This document shows positions 39,596-46,301 of a DNA stretch of 64,000 nucleotides, piece after piece (the stretch's first letter is position 1; every line of letters starts with the position of its first letter). Below the pieces are notes generated by a model. The model was not told where the DNA came from. It saw only the letters and a program-made list of their open reading frames with translations, and made no database searches. Both the position numbers and the translations under genes were made by a program. The DNA comes from an uncultured Candidatus Saccharibacteria bacterium (GTDB lineage Bacteria; Patescibacteriota; Saccharimonadia; UBA4664; CAZOQX01), in contig CAZOQX010000003.1 in the NCBI GenBank assembly GCA_964582465.1, positions 1,115-65,114 on the forward strand, written 5' to 3'.

Positions 39596-39893
39596 TGGGC
39601 ATTACCTCATCAAACGGTTCGTCGAATTCTCCGCGAAAAATCAGCTCGCTTCCGGGATAGCTGCTCTCGCGTTCGGGATGTTCGGTATCGACTCGCCGTC
39701 TAGCTTCATCCCGCGCTCCTTTGCTCTCCCATCTCGCGATAGCCATAAAAGTTCCCGGCTCGGTCAAGGATCGATGTAATTTTGTGCCTTGGGCTCCAGG
39801 ATAGGATTGCAAAAATCGGCTGTTGCGTTTCCAATGCTCGACGAACTTCTCTTTTTCGCCTTCTGGCACACGCCAAACAAAAATACCTTTCAT
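39588..39893 (-). CDS. ABM (antibiotic biosynthesis monooxygenase)-like small protein, tentative
   Basis: 101 aa. FVWRVPEGEKEKFVEHWKRN...GTFMAIARWESKGARDEA resembles the ferredoxin-like ABM fold. Confidence 0.35.
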   Translation of the reverse strand: MKGIFVWRVPEGEKEKFVEHWKRNSRFLQSYPGAQGTKLHRSLTEPGTFMAIARWESKGARDEARRRVDTEHPERESSYPGSELIFRGEFDEPFDEVMPSA

Positions 39894-42607
39894 TACATTT
39901 CGCCCCAGTTCTTGCCGATCTTCGTGTCAACGTCGAGCTTAACTTTAAATTTGTGAACTTTCTCCATTTTGTCCTTAAGGTAGGCGGCGACAGACTCGGC
40001 CTTCTTTTCAGACACTTCCACTATTAACGAATCATGCACCTGCAAAAGCATCTTGGCGTCGGAATCCATCTCCTGGCCGATTTGGATCATCACCAGCTTC
40101 ATCAAATCCGCCTCAGTGCCTTGGATGGGCATGTTAATAGCCGCCCGCTCCGCCGCCTGGCGCACCACAAAATTAGCGCTTTTTACATCCGGCGTCGGAC
40201 GGCGACGACCAAACAGCGTCTCCACATAACCATCTTTGTGCGCCTTCTCGCGCAAGCTCTCCAGATAAACGAGCAGCTGTTTGCGCATACCGAAATAGCG
40301 ATCAATGAAAGCCTTCGCCGTATCGTGATCCATGCCGGTCGCCACGCTCAAACCGTGCGGACTCATGCCGTAGAGCACGCCAAAGTTCACTGTTTTGGCG
40401 GCCGCGCGCATATCTTTCGTGACTTTATCCTCGGGCACGTTAAATAATTCCGCTGCCGTCTCCACATGAATATCGACGCCGCGATTGAACGTTTCAATCA
40501 TGTCTTGGTCGTCCGCCAGTACCGCCGCCAAGCGCAGTTCAAATTGTGAGTAGTCAGCCGAGATTAATAGTTTGCCGGCACCGGCCACAAAGGCCTTGCG
40601 GATTTCGCGACCCAGCTCGGTTCGCACCGGAATGTTTTGCAAATTGGGGTTATTCGAGCTCAGGCGACCGGTCGCGGCAATGGTTTGGTTATAGCTCGTA
40701 TGCAAGCGACCGTTTTTATCGACCAGGAGCGGCAAAGCATCGATGTACGTGCTTTTGAGCTTGGTCAGCTCACGGTATTCCATAATTAAATCGATAATCG
40801 GGTGAGTACCCTGGAGCTTTTCTAGCTCGCTTGCAGCCGTAGACACGCCACTCTTCACCCGTTTTAAACCTACCGATCCAAGATTCAACCTATCAAATAA
40901 AACCGCTTTGAGCTGCTGGGTAGAACTAATATTGAATGAACCGCCGGCCATTTCCCAAATGTCTTTTTCGAGCTTGGTGATGCGCTTGCCCACCACATCA
41001 GCAAGTTCTTTTAGGTAAACCGAGTCGAGTTTAATGCCCTCGATCTCCATGGCAGCAAGCACTGGGATGAGGGGCCATTCCTGTGTCTCGGCCACCTTCT
41101 GCAGACGGTCGGTTTTTTTTAGCTCCGGTCGCAACTTTTCGTACAGGCGCCAGGTGATATCAGCATCCTCGCAGGCGTAGCAATGGGCGTCTTCGATAGT
41201 CGTAACGTCAAACGTCGTTTGCCCACGACCCGTGCCGATTAAACGTTCAATTGGAATCATCTCCAAACCAAGTTCGTTAAAAGCCAGATCACTTAATCCT
41301 GGCGATCGGCGCAAAGGGTTGAGCAAAAATGCCGCCACCATAGTGTCGAACACTACCGGGCCAAGCTCCACCCCACAGGTACGAAACACCTCATAATCGA
41401 ATTTGATGTTGTGGCCAACTTTGCCGATTTTAGGATTTTCGAGCACCGGCTGGAGCAGTCGGAAGATCTCATCTTTTTTAAGTTGGTTGCCACTTTGATG
41501 GCCCACCGGGATATACCACGATTGCTTGGCCTTAAAGCTGATGGAAATCCCCACCAGTGTCGCGGTAATAGAATCTACACTGTTTGTTTCCGTATCAATC
41601 GCGATCACAGGCTGCTGCTCGAGCAACTTCACCAGTTTTGTGAGTTTTTCGGCTGTATCTACAATCTCGTAATCCACGTCCACCGGTTTTTCGATGGTTG
41701 CCTCGGCCTGATCGAACAAGCTCGGCACCTTGGCCTTTGCCGGTTGGGGTAATTTATCGAGCAAACTCTTAAATTCGAAGCGTTGGAAGAGCTCAAAAGC
41801 CCGATCCCGGTCGATCTCACCCCACCGGGATTTGTCCAGGTCGAGCTTGATTGGCATATCGGTCACAATGGTTGCAAGCTTGCGGCTGAGCATGGCCTGG
41901 TCCTTATTCTCCCGCAATTTGTCGGCTACCGCTGGCTTCAGCTCATCCAGGTGTTCATAAATCCCCTCGAGCGAACCATGCGTTTGAACTAAACTCATCG
42001 CCGTCTTCTCACCAATCCCCGGCACGCCGGCAATATTATCGCTGGCATCACCCTTGAGCGCCTTAAAATCCACGAACTGCGCTGGCGTCATGCCGTAAGT
42101 TTCCTGCATGGCCGCAGTATCAAAGATCACCGTGTCCGTCATGCCGCGCCGCATCGTGTAAACTCGCGTATTGTGGTCAATCAGCTGCAGCTCATCCTTG
42201 TCGCCCGTTACAATCACCGTATCTAAATTTTGGACCGAGGATTGTTTTGCGAGCGTGCCAATAATGTCGTCAGCCTCGTAGTCTTCCACTTCTACAAGCG
42301 GAATGGCGAGAGCGTCAATTACTTCTTTGACCAGGGGAATTTGCTGGCGCAGATCATCCGGCATTTCCGCTCGGTTAGCCTTATATGTGGGTGAGAGGTC
42401 ATTGCGAAATGTCTTCTTCGATTTATCCCAAGCCACTACCACATAGTCTGGCTTCAAGTCGCGAATGCTGTTTAGGAGCATCAGCGTAAAGCCGTACACA
42501 GCGTTAGTGGGCGTACCGTCTTTAGTGGAAAGTCCCGGGATAGCATGATAACCGCGGTGAAATACCGCGTTGCCATCAAATAGTACTATCCTCTTCTTTG
42601 CTGCCAT
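39893..42607 (-). CDS. polA: DNA polymerase I
   Basis: 904 aa. 5'-3' exonuclease N-terminus, 3'-5' exo-like middle, and polymerase motifs (DYSQFELR, KTVNFGVLYG, QVHDSLIVE). Confidence 0.95.
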   Translation of the reverse strand: MAAKKRIVLFDGNAVFHRGYHAIPGLSTKDGTPTNAVYGFTLMLLNSIRDLKPDYVVVAWDKSKKTFRNDLSPTYKANRAEMPDDLRQQIPLVKEVIDALAIPLVEVEDYEADDIIGTLAKQSSVQNLDTVIVTGDKDELQLIDHNTRVYTMRRGMTDTVIFDTAAMQETYGMTPAQFVDFKALKGDASDNIAGVPGIGEKTAMSLVQTHGSLEGIYEHLDELKPAVADKLRENKDQAMLSRKLATIVTDMPIKLDLDKSRWGEIDRDRAFELFQRFEFKSLLDKLPQPAKAKVPSLFDQAEATIEKPVDVDYEIVDTAEKLTKLVKLLEQQPVIAIDTETNSVDSITATLVGISISFKAKQSWYIPVGHQSGNQLKKDEIFRLLQPVLENPKIGKVGHNIKFDYEVFRTCGVELGPVVFDTMVAAFLLNPLRRSPGLSDLAFNELGLEMIPIERLIGTGRGQTTFDVTTIEDAHCYACEDADITWRLYEKLRPELKKTDRLQKVAETQEWPLIPVLAAMEIEGIKLDSVYLKELADVVGKRITKLEKDIWEMAGGSFNISSTQQLKAVLFDRLNLGSVGLKRVKSGVSTAASELEKLQGTHPIIDLIMEYRELTKLKSTYIDALPLLVDKNGRLHTSYNQTIAATGRLSSNNPNLQNIPVRTELGREIRKAFVAGAGKLLISADYSQFELRLAAVLADDQDMIETFNRGVDIHVETAAELFNVPEDKVTKDMRAAAKTVNFGVLYGMSPHGLSVATGMDHDTAKAFIDRYFGMRKQLLVYLESLREKAHKDGYVETLFGRRRPTPDVKSANFVVRQAAERAAINMPIQGTEADLMKLVMIQIGQEMDSDAKMLLQVHDSLIVEVSEKKAESVAAYLKDKMEKVHKFKVKLDVDTKIGKNWGEM

Positions 42608-42722
42608 TACATTAATTATAGCGAAATTGCTTACTTTCGTGCCGCTTAAGGTTGCTAATCAGGTTGTCAGATTGCAAAATTGCTTTATTGGCATTGCCCG
42701 CTCTTCGACAAAAGGAGCAAAG

Positions 42723-43286
42723 TTGAGCACTCCGACCCTGACACGCCCGGCCCGAACCTACTGGAAGGTCGAGCGCCTGAAGCTGAGCTACAGTGGCATC
42801 GAGGAACGTCGCGAACAGGTACGGCTGCAATCCGAGGCCAACCTCATCGCCTCGCTGTGCGCAAATGGTCTCCACGCCCCGGCACTGGATCTCGACTTTG
42901 AGGTCGATACAGTGAACGTCGGAGACCGAACCCTGCTGACCTTCCACAAGCGAGTGCCTATGCGAGGCTTCAAGTCTCTGCTCAGGGCCTGGCAGGCCTC
43001 GGGCATGTGGCCTGGAGGTGAATGGTGGTGGCAGCCAGGAAGCGTGACACTCATGACTCTGTATCCGACGCGCCTAGTCGCCTCCAGCACGCCCGGCCAC
43101 CACCACCTCTACTACGATCGAGAGATCACCTGGGAGGAATACGCCGAGCTGCTACGTGGACTTCGCGACGCCGGGCTCATCCAGCGCGGGTTCTGTCGCA
43201 TGAGCCTCCGGCGCAAAATGACCATGTTGCGCCTCCCCGGGCACACCAAGAAGACCACACCTCTTCAACCCAGGTTCTCCGACTAG
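42723..43286 (+). CDS. PrimPol-like (bifunctional primase/polymerase N-terminal domain-like) protein, tentative; first gene of GC-rich island
   Basis: TTG start at 42723, 7 nt after AAGGAG. The track ORF from 42570 overlaps the polA 5' end. LDLDFEVD (DxD-like) and STPGHHHLYYD (sGxHhyF-like) motifs are spaced ~50 aa, as in PF09250-type prim-pol domains. GC is high by eye. Confidence 0.35.
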   Translation: MSTPTLTRPARTYWKVERLKLSYSGIEERREQVRLQSEANLIASLCANGLHAPALDLDFEVDTVNVGDRTLLTFHKRVPMRGFKSLLRAWQASGMWPGGEWWWQPGSVTLMTLYPTRLVASSTPGHHHLYYDREITWEEYAELLRGLRDAGLIQRGFCRMSLRRKMTMLRLPGHTKKTTPLQPRFSD

Positions 43287-43320
43287 TGTCGGCACGCGGA
43301 CAGTTTGATTGGAGGTTCCA

Positions 43321-43527
43321 GTGGCAAAGTTGAAGCCACGACAGAGGCAAATCCTCGCAGCCCTGGTTTCCCTCGGCGGCGAGGGCAGTACCCGCGAGAT
43401 CGCCGAGAAAGCTGGACTCTCTCCGAACGGTGTAGCCCAGACGCTGGGCTCCCCCGCCTTCGACGACATTGTCGAAGGCTTGGACGGCAAGGCCGGCGAC
43501 TACCGGTGGAAACTGCGCGTTCGCTGA
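43321..43527 (+). CDS. Small winged-helix DNA-binding protein (MarR/ArsR-like)
   Basis: GTG start 5 nt after GGAGG. RQRQILAALVSLGGEGSTREIAEKAGLSPNGVAQTL has the typical wHTH recognition-helix pattern. Confidence 0.45.
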   Translation: MAKLKPRQRQILAALVSLGGEGSTREIAEKAGLSPNGVAQTLGSPAFDDIVEGLDGKAGDYRWKLRVR

Positions 43528-43731
43528 TGCCGAATTTCGGAATCAGCCAATTCGCCGCTGGTTTCACCTACTTCGTCGGTGCGAAACTTCAGCCGATCGC
43601 CGATCTTTTGACCGAACGCCGGTTACATGTGCTCGGCTGTGAGGACCGATTCAACAAGGACCGGCGGCGTCGGAAATTCGGCTGCATGCATTACCCCAAG
43701 GCAGCCATCAGACAATGGAGGAGGCACTGAC

Positions 43732-44154
43732 ATGGGTGAGATGTTGGTCGACGGCAGGGATGCCAAGGTCTACATTCTCTGCCGCCAGCCCGGTGACGTC
43801 CCGTTCGCGTGGTACGAATATTGGGTGGTGTTTCGCGATGGCGAAGTGATCGAGGGCGCTAGCACCAGCGTGCACGATCTCTCCATCGTCGGGGACACGC
43901 TCATGCACAGTCGCCGCATCAACAACGCCCAGTTCCAAACCCCGCCCACGCCGGGGCGAGGCAAGTCGTCGGAACGTTGGCCGGTTCGAGTCATTGAACT
44001 CGGCCACTACTACGGCGAGACCGATGAGGTGGACGATGATCCCCTCTTCTGTCGCTACGACTGCGGCGCCTTCATCACCTGGTATGAGGGTGATGCGCCA
44101 TCAGGCGTCGACCCGTTCGGCGAGTGCCCCAACCATCCGGAGGCCAAGCGATGA
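43732..44154 (+). CDS. Hypothetical protein (island gene 3)
   Basis: ATG preceded by GGAGGAGG. 140 aa. C-terminal Cys/His cluster (CRYDCGAF...GECPNHPE). No recognised family. Confidence 0.45.
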   Translation: MGEMLVDGRDAKVYILCRQPGDVPFAWYEYWVVFRDGEVIEGASTSVHDLSIVGDTLMHSRRINNAQFQTPPTPGRGKSSERWPVRVIELGHYYGETDEVDDDPLFCRYDCGAFITWYEGDAPSGVDPFGECPNHPEAKR

Positions 44155-44417
44155 GAGCTAGGCACTCCCCCACACCCAGTGGCACCCCGATCCGTGATTC
44201 AGAGTCAATCGGGCTCAGAAGCACGTTACTGCGGCAGGCCGCTCCCTTGCGGCGGGCCGCTCTGGACCTTGATCCGGATGCGTGGCGACGAGCGGTTAAA
44301 GTGATCGGCTCTCCCACGGATGTCCGTTATGTGCTCGCCATGTTCGACGACGAACTGCCGGCACAGGCGCTGGAGTTCGCCCGACGCATGCTGGCAAAGA
44401 CGGAGGCATCAAAATGA
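44151..44417 (+). CDS. Hypothetical protein (island gene 4)
   Basis: ATGA start/stop overlap with the upstream gene. 88 aa with an Arg-rich N-terminus. Exact frame choice is uncertain (alternative track ORF 44124..44417). Confidence 0.3.
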   Translation: MRARHSPTPSGTPIRDSESIGLRSTLLRQAAPLRRAALDLDPDAWRRAVKVIGSPTDVRYVLAMFDDELPAQALEFARRMLAKTEASK

Positions 44418-44530
44418 GCAAGCAAAAGACAGCTGTGATCGGTGCGGTCGGCCTGCTCGGGCTAGCGATGTTCTACCTCGGGCGGTTCATGGCCAGGCAC
44501 TCGCACGACCTCGGACCCTGCGGCGATTAG
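44414..44530 (+). CDS. Tiny single-TM peptide (38 aa)
   Basis: ATGA overlap with the upstream stop. MSKQKTAVIGAVGLLGLAMFYLGRFMARHSHDLGPCGD. Confidence 0.35.
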   Translation: MSKQKTAVIGAVGLLGLAMFYLGRFMARHSHDLGPCGD

Positions 44531-44539
44531 GAGGTCAAG

Positions 44540-44638
44540 ATGCGCAAGCTTGTAGGCTACACGCTTCTGGGCATCGCGGCCTACCTCGTTGCCAAGATCA
44601 TCTGGGATTTCCTCGGCCATCTCAGTGAACGGCCATGA
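44540..44638 (+). CDS. Tiny single-TM peptide (32 aa)
   Basis: Strong SD AGGAGG 6 nt upstream. MRKLVGYTLLGIAAYLVAKIIWDFLGHLSERP. Confidence 0.35.
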   Translation: MRKLVGYTLLGIAAYLVAKIIWDFLGHLSERP

Positions 44639-44645
44639 GCGCCTC

Positions 44646-45038
44646 ATGAGATCTAGCCCACTCCTCAGCCTGCGTGAGCGTGAAGTCGCCGAACTCGCAA
44701 GCTCCGGTCTGACCAACAAGGAGATTGCCGCTCAGCTCGGCCTCTCGCCCGAAACCATCAAGAATCACTTGTCTCATGCCTTCACGAAACTCGGCGTACA
44801 CAACCGAATTGAGCTGGCTCGCGAGATGGTGCACCGCGAGATGATCCGCGCGAGCAGCACGAGGGTGACAATTCTCGCCACGTCCTTTGACGACGGATCT
44901 TGGTTCGTTGCCATCAAGGAGGACGAAACAGTCAGCGTCGTTCCGTTCAGCAAACGTGAGGAATGGGAGGCTTTTCGCCAAGCACTGGAAGTCCTCCAGC
45001 CCTACCTCTGCGCCCAACTGCGGATAATCGAGCGGTGA
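44646..45038 (+). CDS. LuxR/GerE-family HTH transcriptional regulator with uncharacterised C-terminal domain
   Basis: LSLREREVAELASSGLTNKEIAAQLGLSPETIKNHLSHAFTKLGV is a canonical LuxR-type HTH placed at the N-terminus. Last gene of the island. Followed by a hairpin. Confidence 0.65.
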   Translation: MRSSPLLSLREREVAELASSGLTNKEIAAQLGLSPETIKNHLSHAFTKLGVHNRIELAREMVHREMIRASSTRVTILATSFDDGSWFVAIKEDETVSVVPFSKREEWEAFRQALEVLQPYLCAQLRIIER

Positions 45039-45058
45039 GCTCTAGCAGCCCGACACCG

Positions 45059-45088
45059 GGGCCCGGGATTCTAACGAATTCCGGGCCC
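45059..45088 (+). terminator. GC-rich hairpin (8-bp stem GGGCCCGG/CCGGGCCC) downstream of the LuxR gene
   Basis: Inverted repeat read directly from the sequence. Followed by TTGGCCGTTTTA. Confidence 0.45.
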
Positions 45089-45112
45089 TTGGCCGTTTTA
45101 ATTACAAAGAAA

Positions 45113-45154
45113 GCGCCCCTGGCTCGTGCAAAGCCTCGGGGCGCAGTCGTTTTT
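45113..45154. terminator. Bidirectional rho-independent terminator (rpoD on minus; island operon on plus)
   Basis: GCGCCCC...GGGGCGC stem. T-runs on both strands (AGTCGTTTTT on plus, TTTCTTTGTAATTAAAA on minus). Immediately 3' of the rpoD stop. Confidence 0.6.
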
Positions 45155-46301
45155 AATGCAGGTAATCGCGTAGTTTTTTACTTTCGCGGTGCTTGCGCAG
45201 TTTGGCGAGCGCCTTGGCCTCGATCTGACGAATTCGCTCGCGGGTCACGCCGAATTCCTGTCCCACCTCTTCCAGTGTGTGACTGCGGCCATCGTCTAGC
45301 CCGAAGCGCATGCGTAAAATTTTCTGTTCGCGTGGGGTAAGTAAGTCAAGCATCTCACCTACCTGCTCTTTCAGCAGCTGATCGGTGGCAGCCTCAAGCG
45401 GCGTGCGCGACTCTTCGTCCGGAATGAAATCGCCCAGCGTAGAGTCGGCTTCCTCGCCCACCGGCGCTTCGAGCGACACAATGTCTTGTTTGATCTTCAT
45501 AATGTGATTAACCTTCTCGACTTCCATGTCCATCTCGGCGGCGAGTTCTTCTACCATCGGTTCGCGTCCCAGTTCTTGCTGCAAGCGCCGCTGGGTGCGA
45601 ATCAACTTATTAATCGTCTCCACCATGTGGACGGGGATACGGATGGTACGGGCTTGGTCGGCAATAGCCCGGGTAATAGCCTGGCGAATCCACCAGGTCG
45701 CATAAGTCGAAAACTTGTAGCCCTTGGTGTAATCGAATTTCTCCACAGCGCGGAGTAGGCCAGTGTTACCCTCCTGAATTAGGTCGAGTAAGTCGAGCCC
45801 ACGCCCAATGTATTTTTTCGCGATCGATACCACCAGACGCATGTTGGCCTCAGCCATCTTGTCCTTAGCCCGCTTGCCATCGGCCGCAGCCAGCGTGTTT
45901 TTAGACGCGTTCACGCCCTTCTGGATCCGCTTCGCGAGCGCTACTTCTTCCTCGGCTTTCAGCAAAGGGATTTTACCAATTTCGCGCAGGTACAGCCTAA
46001 CCGAATCGTCGGCCACTGTGTCATCGATATACGTTTCGGGCTTCTCGGGCTGGGTTTCCTCTTCCTCTTCGCCCTGGCCCCACATCAGCTCATCGCGCTG
46101 ATCAATTACTTCAACGCCGGCATCAAACAGTTGCTGGTAAAACTCATCGAGCTCCTCGACATTATCCTCGGCCTCGCCATAGATCGCGCTAACTTCTTGC
46201 TGTGTGACATAGCCACGCTCCTTGCCCTTGGCAATCAGCTGTTCAACTTCGGAATTGGTCGACGCATCTTCTTCTTGTGGTTTCTGAACCTTTTTCGGCA
46301 T
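45153..46301 (-). CDS. rpoD: RNA polymerase sigma factor RpoD (sigma-70)
   Basis: 382 aa. Regions 1.2 to 4 (e.g. [28 protein letters not shown], region 4.2 [25 protein letters not shown]). Confidence 0.95.

Follow-up and report, generated by a model that had tools for sequence, protein, structure and literature searches.

Two probable small membrane peptides encoded in a putative actinobacteriophage-type operon between rpoD and polA of a Saccharimonadia genome

Introduction

Tiny phage membrane proteins that have been tested experimentally are often growth-inhibitory, and their targets are mostly unknown. The Spd proteins are small and hydrophobic. Phr and AimP peptides are 30-45 aa long, begin with a basic N-terminus that is followed by a hydrophobic core and a polar C-terminal tail, and adjoin a transcription regulator. 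Cultured Saccharibacteria are epibionts of Actinobacteria. Among described small membrane proteins, gp43 of mycobacteriophage Amelie is 58 aa long with a single TMD and is highly toxic on overexpression; its authors place it in a gene cluster 3' of cro (PMC11797047). DinQ, a type I toxin, is a single-TM peptide as well (PMC3567139).

Here we describe two short open reading frames, mini-ORF 1 (38 aa) and mini-ORF 2 (32 aa), in a 64-kb window (the whole stretch of DNA that was analysed) from a host assigned to Saccharimonadia (TM7/Patescibacteria). The two resemble the small membrane proteins of no known function (NKF) from non-structural (early or right-arm) regions of actinophages in being tiny, in having one hydrophobic helix and in lacking a sequence family; they also lie, as those proteins do, in an array of short genes led by Shine-Dalgarno (SD) sequences, with 1-4-nt overlaps and HTH regulators nearby. 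These NKF proteins form a functional category, not a homology family, and the mini-ORFs lie in a phage-type array of short, overlapping genes of the same sort. The differences are that the mini-ORF peptides share no sequence similarity with any small actinophage membrane protein, that their lengths of 38 and 32 aa fall below the 58 aa of Amelie gp43, the only example cited here with an experimental test, and that, unlike actinophage genes, they reside in a Saccharimonadia chromosome and not in a phage genome.

Results

A foreign island between polA and rpoD

The mini-ORFs lie in a foreign island of ~2.4 kb (about 42.65-45.15 kb) between polA and rpoD, flanked by these housekeeping genes. The GC content of the island is 60-63%, against ~52% for the Saccharimonadia host genome, and its eight genes form a tightly packed operon on the + strand in which the mini-ORFs are cistrons 6 and 7. 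The island has the following features.

42723 to 43286, + strand: island gene 1, 187 aa, TTG start, AAGGAG SD, stop TAG
43321 to 43527, + strand: island gene 2, 68 aa, GGAGG SD, called in L001
43527 to 43730, + strand: island gene 3, 67 aa, without family, its start overlapping the preceding stop (TGATG)
43732 to 44154, + strand: island gene 4, a 140-aa ORFan, SD GGAGGAGG
44151 to 44417, + strand: island gene 5, an 88-aa ORFan with an ATGA overlap at both ends
44402 to 44406, + strand: SD of mini-ORF 1, GGAGG with a 7-nt spacer, read from the sequence
44414 to 44530, + strand: mini-ORF 1, 38 aa, one predicted TM helix (about residues 7-27)
44529 to 44534, + strand: SD of mini-ORF 2, AGGAGG with a 5-nt spacer
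44540 to 44638, + strand: mini-ORF 2, 32 aa, one predicted TM helix (about residues 4-24)
44646 to 45038, + strand: island gene 8, 130 aa, GerE/LuxR HTH at residues 7-59
45059 to 45088, + strand: GC-rich hairpin with 13-nt arms and a 4-nt loop, then a short T-run (inverted repeat I10)
45113 to 45144, no strand assigned: second hairpin, GCGCCCC...GGGGCGC, with T-runs on both strands

Island gene 1 belongs to a family with a conserved C-terminal SSTPGHxHLYxD...TW motif and matches the PHROGs phrog_10893 (E = 4.9e-13) and phrog_18245 (E = 3.8e-10). When its product was compared with a phage collection by tblastn, 123 records matched, all of them bearing actinophage names (phages of Mycobacterium, Gordonia, Microbacterium, Arthrobacter, Rhodococcus or Curtobacterium). 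A profile of this 187-aa family recovered 139 metagenomic and viral loci with a median GC of 63%, none of which carries any further gene of the island; against the PDB the profile (alignment A1) found no match. In actinophages, the neighbourhoods of the family include genes annotated as tiny or as "membrane protein" (Gordonia, Rhodococcus and Microbacterium phages), and in ~800 kb of these neighbourhoods there are 11 SD-led TM mini-ORFs of 25-60 aa.

Island gene 2 has a weak winged-HTH or sigma region-4-like DNA-binding signature (sub-threshold Pfam HTH matches only), and island gene 3, called in the Logan contig only, is also backed by its coding-frame statistics. The C-terminal stretch of the island gene 4 product contains Cys and His residues; this protein matched only itself among 5.8 billion protein clusters, had no relative among viral contigs and matched nothing in Pfam or PHROGs. 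Island gene 5, which was also called as a gene, found no match among phages and JGI metagenome contigs.

A GGAGG-type SD precedes six of the eight island genes, both mini-ORFs included. The + strand of the island carries 10 copies of GGAGG where 3.7 are expected; six of these lie 4-11 nt before a called start and four are internal to genes. SD use in the Saccharimonadia host seems rare (none in 27 of 36 long ORFs, with starts called mechanically), and no promoter-like site for the island operon was found on either strand, so it is uncertain whether the operon is expressed in this host.

At the 3' end of the operon, the GC-rich hairpin is a probable terminator. The second hairpin, which was read by eye and which a simple scanner did not report, lies between the convergent rpoD and island operon; from its sequence it is a probable bidirectional terminator, and it marks the approximate right edge of the island. 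In relatives, rpoD and polA are 51 nt apart or have unrelated cargo between them. An imperfect 30-nt direct repeat (42618-42647 and 45165-45194, 73% identity) and, just 5' of polA, a frame resembling the rpoD C-terminus were considered as traces of an att duplication at an integration site; the polA-proximal part, however, falls on a conserved GCTATAAT promoter-like motif that relatives also have, and the idea is unproven.

No homologous island was found in protein clusters, viral and metagenome contigs, phages or plasmids. Comparison of the island DNA with phages and plasmids gave nothing useful, blastn against PLSDB returning only a 78-nt match to the LuxR HTH. A defence-system explanation was rejected, the PADLOC matches being at the level of the HTH only. 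No lysin domain was found in the island proteins with Pfam or PHROG, and hence no adjacent endolysin of the kind that marks a holin or lysis cassette. The mini-ORFs are probably passengers of recent horizontal transfer in the present genome.

Two SD-led mini-ORFs directly upstream of a LuxR-family gene

Mini-ORF 1 runs from the ATG at 44414 to the TAG at 44530 and translates as MSKQKTAVIGAVGLLGLAMFYLGRFMARHSHDLGPCGD; mini-ORF 2 runs from the ATG at 44540 to the TGA at 44638 and translates as MRKLVGYTLLGIAAYLVAKIIWDFLGHLSERP. A first-pass annotation of this DNA had described here a pair of SD-led mini-ORFs of 38 and 32 aa, each with a hydrophobic core flanked by basic residues, directly 5' of a LuxR-family gene, and both sequence and hydropathy agree with that description. 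The ATGA overlap that it reported between the first mini-ORF and the preceding stop, the TGA of the 88-aa gene, is present at 44414-44417. The strong SD that it assigned to the second is likewise there, and overlaps the TAG of mini-ORF 1. The two mini-ORFs share one reading frame, with only TAG and GAG GTC AAG between them, a point that the first-pass annotation had missed.

Both peptides have a basic N-terminus (MSKQK in mini-ORF 1, MRK in mini-ORF 2), then 17-21 hydrophobic residues and, at the C-terminal end, a polar tail of 13-15 residues. Their net charge is +2, and charged residues lie inside or abut each predicted helix (R24 in one; K19 and D23 in the other). When compared with each other, the two peptides showed no similarity. 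The proposed check for a TM helix came out positive: the Kyte-Doolittle 19-residue maximum is 1.77 in both peptides, above the classical TM threshold of 1.6, and their TM status is read from this hydropathy scale only.

Coding signature of the mini-ORFs

Short open frames are common in the window: counting both strands, 1,148 start-stop pairs encode 28-60 aa. Thirteen of these small ORFs follow an SD core of 5 nt or more, and only mini-ORFs 1 and 2 combine such a core with a hydrophobic window (17 residues) that scores 1.6 or higher. GC1/GC2/GC3 is 0.62/0.44/0.82 in mini-ORF 1 and 0.61/0.39/0.70 in mini-ORF 2, values that resemble those of the flanking island genes, and both follow the order of their neighbours, GC3 > GC1 > GC2; in a shuffle test of the GC3-GC2 difference, p = 0.0005 and 0.003, respectively. 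With the six larger island genes as training set, the codon log-likelihood is +0.13 and +0.36 bit per codon for the two mini-ORFs, compared with -0.02 to +0.24 for the accepted island genes in a leave-one-out analysis. The score is positive only in the annotated + frame of the mini-ORFs and strongly negative in the other + frames. Without the mini-ORFs, an otherwise gap-free operon would carry an untranslated gap of 228 nt. Because their coding signature is the same as that of their neighbours, mini-ORFs 1 and 2 probably encode genuine small membrane peptides, as judged from sequence.

The expectation that automated annotation would miss peptides of this size proved wrong at this locus: both mini-ORFs appear among the gene calls of an independent Logan assembly and in an NCBI-derived gene set. 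The sequence is identical in two assemblies, and the TAG between the mini-ORFs is therefore not an assembly error.

Other uses of the same DNA were rejected. A 102-aa + strand ORF at 44320-44628, which overlaps the mini-ORFs, failed on composition and codon score, and an 85-aa - strand ORF at 44462-44719 failed on composition, codon score and absence of an SD. An RNA element was also discarded as an explanation: an Rfam search of 42400-45400 returned no family at E <= 1, and the fold of 44395-44665 compared with shuffles (z = -1.13) gave no unusual mRNA structure.

Orphan peptides in an orphan neighbourhood

An exhaustive phmmer search of both peptides against 1.84 billion representative proteins returned self matches only, and a word-indexed protein search with the concatenated 38 and 32 aa found the concatenation itself as the sole match. 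Searched by tblastn, the mini-ORF peptides gave nothing significant among phages, and the fused peptides gave only TM noise at E >= 1 among the 72,556 plasmids of PLSDB. The peptides had no significant match in Pfam, PHROGs, NCBIfam or PADLOC, the best PHROG matches being phrog_11038 (E = 0.045) and phrog_34183 (E = 0.31), neither of them significant; the fused sequence was likewise without family or homologue. The four neighbours of the mini-ORFs that were checked have no homologue either. The orphan status of the peptides does not discriminate between explanations, because, at the level of families, the rest of the island proteins that were checked are orphans too. As real-looking genes without detectable relatives, the mini-ORF peptides are ordinary phage "dark matter".

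A GerE-type regulator without an SD

Island gene 8 has no SD, and 7 nt separate its ATG from the preceding stop, that of mini-ORF 2. Its product matches Pfam PF00196 at 71.1 bits (cut-off 23.5, E = 6e-20) and GerE and NarL entries in the PDB (GerE 1fse, E = 1.7e-11). All 81 of its 81 homologues align to the HTH only; named LuxR HTH matches come from Aeromicrobium, Gordonia and Trebonia. The HTH is itself N-terminal, no known sensor module (autoinducer-binding or receiver domain) was found in the protein, and its C-terminal ~65 aa have no detectable homologue. An AF2 model of the protein is of low confidence (pLDDT 63.6).

Discussion

We favour the reading, with a probability of roughly 0.55, that the mini-ORFs are genuine coding cistrons in a foreign operon, of actinobacteriophage "early region" type, that was inserted between rpoD and polA. 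Judged from gene geometry only, ribosomes would pass from the 140-aa gene through the 88-aa, 38-aa and 32-aa genes to the LuxR gene by coupling or re-initiation, and translation of the 32-aa ORF would set the output of the SD-less LuxR regulator. Each peptide would insert in the cytoplasmic membrane and cross it once, as a helix with its N-terminus inside according to the positive-inside rule, and would then act as small actinophage membrane proteins do, by inhibiting growth, excluding other phages or modulating a membrane protein. By this analogy we infer a function in perturbing or modulating host membrane functions. Of the three roles that had been suggested for the peptides at first pass, that of membrane-protein modulator is a possible one.

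The mini-ORFs also share features with upstream coupling ORFs: mini-ORF 2 ends 7 nt before the SD-less LuxR ATG, and other genes of the island operon overlap by ATGA or TGATG. They are nevertheless unlikely to be mere leader ORFs, because they have protein-like features of their own, namely a TM helix and codon bias.

There is a small but appreciable chance that the two mini-ORFs descend from one ancestral gene for a two-TM hairpin of ~74 aa, cut by the in-frame amber codon at 44528-44530. The cut could be a recent nonsense mutation or pseudogenisation after transfer, or the codon could be a leaky stop; in each case mini-ORF 2 would be the C-terminal half of the gene. Only the TAG and three sense codons separate the halves, which are in the same frame, the coding signature is unbroken across the junction (GC3 = 0.77 over the 225 nt), the charged segment between the helices would make a plausible cytoplasmic loop, and two-TM membrane proteins of 68-87 aa are annotated in comparable actinophage regions. 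A shared frame, however, has a prior of one in three by chance, and the second half opens precisely with an ATG behind AGGAGG (5-nt spacer), the island's best SD, whereas only four of the ten + strand GGAGG copies are internal to genes. Island gene 1, too, has TAG as its genuine stop, and both the orphan status of the fused sequence and its identity in two assemblies speak against a single gene.

Slimmer is the chance that the DNA between the 88-aa and LuxR genes is a non-coding leader or spacer in which the mini-ORFs are open fortuitously and yield no functional peptide. It would fit that neither 1.84 billion representative proteins nor 5.8 billion protein clusters contain a homologue, and that short ORFs abound in the window. 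Chance frames would not be expected to start, both of them, behind a strong SD, with an ATGA overlap at the first, or to show codon bias specific to their frame and a GC3 periodicity like that of the neighbours, and no RNA family or stable structure accounts for the spacer.

Exported pre-pro-peptides like Phr or AimP in place of membrane anchors, the processed tails of which would be sensed by the orphan C-terminal domain of the SD-less GerE-type regulator, are an improbable alternative. The peptides resemble Phr and AimP in length, layout and position beside a regulator: 38 and 32 aa, beginning MSKQK or MRK, with 15-18 hydrophobic residues and a polar tail of 13-15 residues, they adjoin, and would be coupled to, a gene whose product has a 65-aa C-terminal region without homologue. 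Their n-region and h-region are compatible in layout with a Sec-exported, processed precursor. They differ in that this regulator is a 130-aa GerE-type protein and not a TPR receptor, in having no homology to Phr or AimP, and in that the donor would be an actinobacterial and not a Firmicute phage. Further, the island has no TPR or RRNPP-type receptor domain, the length of the hydrophobic stretches would suffice for stable TM anchoring, reading by eye showed no clear AXA-type site for cleavage, and the regulator's AF2 model lacks the quality needed to judge a binding domain. If this reading were true, it would describe a new, non-RRNPP peptide-communication module of actinophage origin in the genome of an epibiotic Saccharimonadia, one that could eavesdrop on the host actinobacterium or on phages of that host, or interfere with them.

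Still less probable are membrane-depolarising type I toxins of the Hok, TisB or DinQ kind, repressed by antisense RNA, although a length below 60 aa, a single hydrophobic TM helix and a small positive charge (net +2) are typical of them. Such toxins are made from separately transcribed, structurally masked mRNAs, whereas the mini-ORFs are internal, coupled cistrons with accessible, unmasked SDs, for which no separate promoter or antisense RNA was found. The first-pass suggestion of a type I toxin found no support: there is no promoter-like site on either strand, no toxin or antitoxin RNA in Rfam, no masking structure (z = -1.1) and no toxin family in Pfam, NCBIfam, PHROGs or PADLOC, and the 85-aa ORF on the antisense strand lacks an SD and is off-frame in composition. 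Least probable is its other suggestion, that the peptides are Spd-type spread proteins or parts of an actinomycete conjugative or integrative element: they are small and hydrophobic, as the Spd proteins of Streptomyces plasmids are, and lie in high-GC, actinobacterial-looking DNA, but a search of the island for TraB/FtsK-like translocase (tra), replication (rep) and integrase (int) genes found none, the 72,556 PLSDB plasmids hold nothing similar beyond the 78-nt LuxR HTH match, and the sole family assignment besides generic HTHs, that of island gene 1, is to an actinophage family.

On the favoured reading of two cistrons in a transferred phage-type operon, the peptides would be two more orphan entries for a large class of tiny phage-borne membrane proteins, and the locus would serve as a compact model of translational coupling in which a small ORF feeds an SD-less regulator. 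The more useful result than the peptides is the operon itself, an intact, SD-rich, eight-gene operon of actinophage type with 60-63% GC in the core rpoD-polA locus. Because cultured Saccharibacteria are epibionts of Actinobacteria, the island is a concrete candidate for gene flow from a host, or from a phage of the host, to its epibiont.

A high-GC operon with two short frames ahead of a LuxR-family gene

An island of 60-63% GC (~42.65-45.15 kb), set in a genome of ~52% GC, lies between polA and rpoD, with dnaG following. Its eight genes are closely spaced and all run on the + strand, in antisense to the flanks; the sixth and seventh are a 38-aa and a 32-aa ORF (mini-ORFs 1 and 2), and the eighth encodes a LuxR-type regulator (the LuxR gene).

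Features of the island and its borders
39893-42607, - strand: polA
42723-43286, + strand: island gene, 187 aa
43321-43527, + strand: island gene, 68 aa
43527-43730, + strand: island gene, 67 aa
43732-44154, + strand: island gene, 140 aa
44151-44417, + strand: island gene, 88 aa
44402-44406, + strand: SD of mini-ORF 1, GGAGG, 7-nt spacer (from sequence)
ATG 44414 to TAG 44530, + strand: mini-ORF 1, 38 aa, MSKQKTAVIGAVGLLGLAMFYLGRFMARHSHDLGPCGD (from sequence)
44529-44534, + strand: SD of mini-ORF 2, AGGAGG, 5-nt spacer (from sequence)
ATG 44540 to TGA 44638, + strand: mini-ORF 2, 32 aa, MRKLVGYTLLGIAAYLVAKIIWDFLGHLSERP (from sequence)
44646-45038, + strand: LuxR gene, 130 aa
45059-45088: GC-rich hairpin after the operon
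45113-45144: second hairpin, T-runs on both strands, between operon and rpoD
45153-46301, - strand: rpoD

The first-pass annotation had described two SD-led mini-ORFs upstream of a LuxR-family gene, and both the sequence and Pfam PF00196 bear this out. Mini-ORF 1 does begin in an ATGA overlap with the TGA of the preceding 88-aa ORF, and the near-perfect SD claimed for mini-ORF 2 is present, sharing bases with the TAG of mini-ORF 1. Absent from that annotation was the fact that both mini-ORFs occupy one reading frame: the junction at 44528-44542 reads ...GAT TAG GAG GTC AAG ATG..., with only TAG GAG GTC AAG between them. Both peptides have basic residues at the N-terminus, and the 19-residue Kyte-Doolittle maximum is 1.77 in each, above the classical TM threshold of 1.6; the proposal of small membrane peptides is probable, whereas the toxin and Spd readings attached to it are not supported.

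Coding evidence for the mini-ORFs

Both strands of the 64-kb window hold 1,148 start-stop pairs of 28-60 aa. An SD core of 5 nt or more, placed 3-10 nt from the start, is present in just 13, and only two of these 13, exactly mini-ORFs 1 and 2, also reach a hydropathy of at least 1.6 over 17 residues. GC1/GC2/GC3 values are 0.62/0.44/0.82 in mini-ORF 1 and 0.61/0.39/0.70 in mini-ORF 2, the same GC3 > GC1 > GC2 pattern as in surrounding genes, and the GC3-GC2 gap stands out against nucleotide shuffles (p = 0.0005 and 0.003, respectively). With the six larger neighbours in the island as training set, a codon model gives mini-ORFs 1 and 2 scores of +0.13 and +0.36 bit per codon; the training genes, left out one at a time, score -0.02 to +0.24, and the remaining two + frames score strongly negative. 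An independent Logan assembly (run SRR9179560) is 100% identical to the window across 4,864 nt; its gene caller predicts both mini-ORFs and both peptides also occur in an NCBI-derived protein set, contrary to the expectation that annotation would miss them.

Because SDs, coupling geometry, codon bias, operon compaction and TM-grade hydrophobicity coincide, the evidence favours real cistrons. The shared frame is very probably coding now, or was until recently, and we put the probability of two separately initiated peptides at about 0.65. The common frame and a coding signal continuous across the junction are also what a single 74-aa two-TM gene split by TAG would leave; the optimal AGGAGG-N5-ATG placed at that junction makes such a split unlikely. 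Given the codon and SD statistics, we consider it quite unlikely that the mini-ORFs are chance ORFs. A reading in which the peptides are exported as signalling pre-peptides and sensed by the LuxR protein fits their size and layout but is highly improbable. The first-pass suggestion of a type I toxin is very remote, since the mini-ORFs are internal to an operon and have no antisense RNA family, promoter-like site or masked SD; that of an actinomycete spread protein or conjugative element is scarcely credible, tra, rep and int genes and plasmid similarity all being absent.

Two other ORFs in the region were rejected: one of 102 aa on the + strand (44320-44628), whose codon score is negative and composition off-frame, and one of 85 aa on the - strand (44462-44719), also off-frame in composition and lacking an SD, its codon score being positive (+8.9 bits) only in the part opposite mini-ORF 2. 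An Rfam search of the mini-ORF region matched no family, and its RNA folding is no better than that of shuffles (z = -1.13).

Family searches yielded no relatives: neither singly nor fused do the peptides significantly match Pfam, PHROG, NCBIfam or PADLOC. Joined into one 38+32 query, the peptides retrieved nothing but themselves, both from 5.8 billion clusters and in an exhaustive phmmer search of 1.84 billion representatives; neither phages nor plasmids yielded a significant tblastn match, and the two are not paralogues of each other. By analogy, their nearest functional counterparts would be small actinophage membrane proteins of no known function, a likeness that is not membership. One of these proteins, Amelie gp43 (58 aa, single TMD), is highly toxic when overexpressed (PMC11797047). 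Related loci contain 11 SD-led mini-TM ORFs of 25-60 aa in ~800 kb.

Translation signals and neighbouring genes

A GGAGG-type SD precedes six of the eight island genes. The motif occurs 10 times on the + strand of the island (3.7 expected) and four times on the - strand, and six of the 10 sit 4-11 nt ahead of a called start. Translation signals differ between island and host, and because island SD usage is unlike the host's, expression of the island in its present host is uncertain. When ORF starts are set mechanically, 27 of the 36 long host ORFs in the whole window have no SD core reaching 4 nt. On the side of rpoD, which converges on it, the operon is closed by two hairpins.

No SD precedes the LuxR gene, whose ATG follows the stop of mini-ORF 2 by 7 nt (44636-44648), so that translation of this gene seems to depend on termination-reinitiation. 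In the mechanism we propose, the operon would be translated through SD-driven initiation and coupling, each mini-ORF peptide would enter the membrane as a single-pass helix, its N-terminus inside, and termination at the mini-ORF 2 TGA would feed re-initiation at the LuxR ATG. The LuxR gene product is a GerE/LuxR-type HTH protein (PF00196, E = 6e-20; PDB matches to GerE and NarL). Its HTH is N-terminal, an unusual order among LuxR-family proteins, and is followed by an orphan region of ~65 aa predicted with low confidence as beta-beta-beta-alpha-beta. The 140-aa protein has a Cys/His-containing C-terminal stretch, CRYDC...ECPNHPE, that could bind zinc.

A 15-nt motif occurs twice in the polA-island intergenic region (ATAGCGAAATTGCTT at 42618-42632 and ATTGCAAAATTGCTT at 42671-42685, 53 nt apart), each copy with GCAA..TTGC inverted arms; the pair may be operators for an island HTH protein, or chance.

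A variable rpoD-polA junction

The island is flanked by housekeeping genes (holA, histidine phosphatase, fpg, polA, rpoD, dnaG, DUF305, a MacB-type ABC system, pgi and groEL), and no integrase was found among them. The best PolA relatives (45-56% identity) are mostly from Saccharimonadia or Saccharibacteria MAGs. We compared window positions 42607-45153 with six related loci (L002, L003, L005, L006, L007 and L009). Two have an rpoD-polA gap of ~51 nt, with a terminator hairpin and a GCTATAAT motif inside it; the other four carry 2.1-3.8 kb of unrelated DNA of host-like GC. The junction is therefore variable across Saccharimonadia, and the island in the window is lineage-specific and compositionally foreign; the junction may be an insertion hot spot. 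Cargo in the relatives includes membrane proteins and, read by eye, a probable amidophosphoribosyltransferase.

A 30-nt direct repeat of 73% identity joins 42618-42647 to 45165-45194. A frame just upstream of polA (42612-42660, - strand), ending ...NLKRHESKQFRYN at its stop, resembles the RpoD C-terminus (45153-45210, - strand). The repeat shares part of its length with the conserved polA promoter-like GCTATAAT; it may represent a displaced 3' end of rpoD (an att-like duplication), or chance.

Origin of the island

All eight island proteins form singleton clusters at 90% identity, and no homologous island was present in the collections searched. A search of 5.8 billion protein clusters turned up no homologue of the 140-aa protein, the 88-aa protein has no match in phages or JGI metagenomes, and the LuxR gene product shares only its HTH with other proteins; none of 158 other loci examined (all but the window's own Logan copy) carries more than one island gene.

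Beyond generic HTH domains, the sole family-level link is that of the 187-aa protein to an actinobacteriophage family. It matches two PHROGs, both of unknown function, and by tblastn 123 phage records, every one of which bears the name of a phage of Mycobacterium, Gordonia, Microbacterium, Arthrobacter, Rhodococcus or Curtobacterium; a profile search recovered 139 metagenomic and viral loci (median GC 63%). In phages the family sits in a non-structural region, amid many short overlapping genes, some annotated as membrane proteins and some 26-49 aa long. Named relatives of the LuxR HTH are from Aeromicrobium, Gordonia and Trebonia. From the family, the HTH relatives and the phage neighbourhoods, the island resembles a piece of an actinophage-type early region.

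The family, which ranges over actinophages and high-GC viral contigs, has a motif SSTPGHxHLYxDxExTW, with S121, T123, G125, H126, H128, D132, E134 and W137 invariant in our alignment. Neither Pfam nor PDB contains a relative, so the family may be an uncharacterised enzyme or metal-binding domain.

Since known hosts of episymbiotic Saccharibacteria include Actinobacteria, it is a reasonable inference that the island was acquired from an actinobacterial host or the host's phages. As a candidate gene transfer from host, or host's phages, to epibiont, an actinophage-like island in a core locus of Saccharimonadia is more notable than the mini-ORFs it contains.
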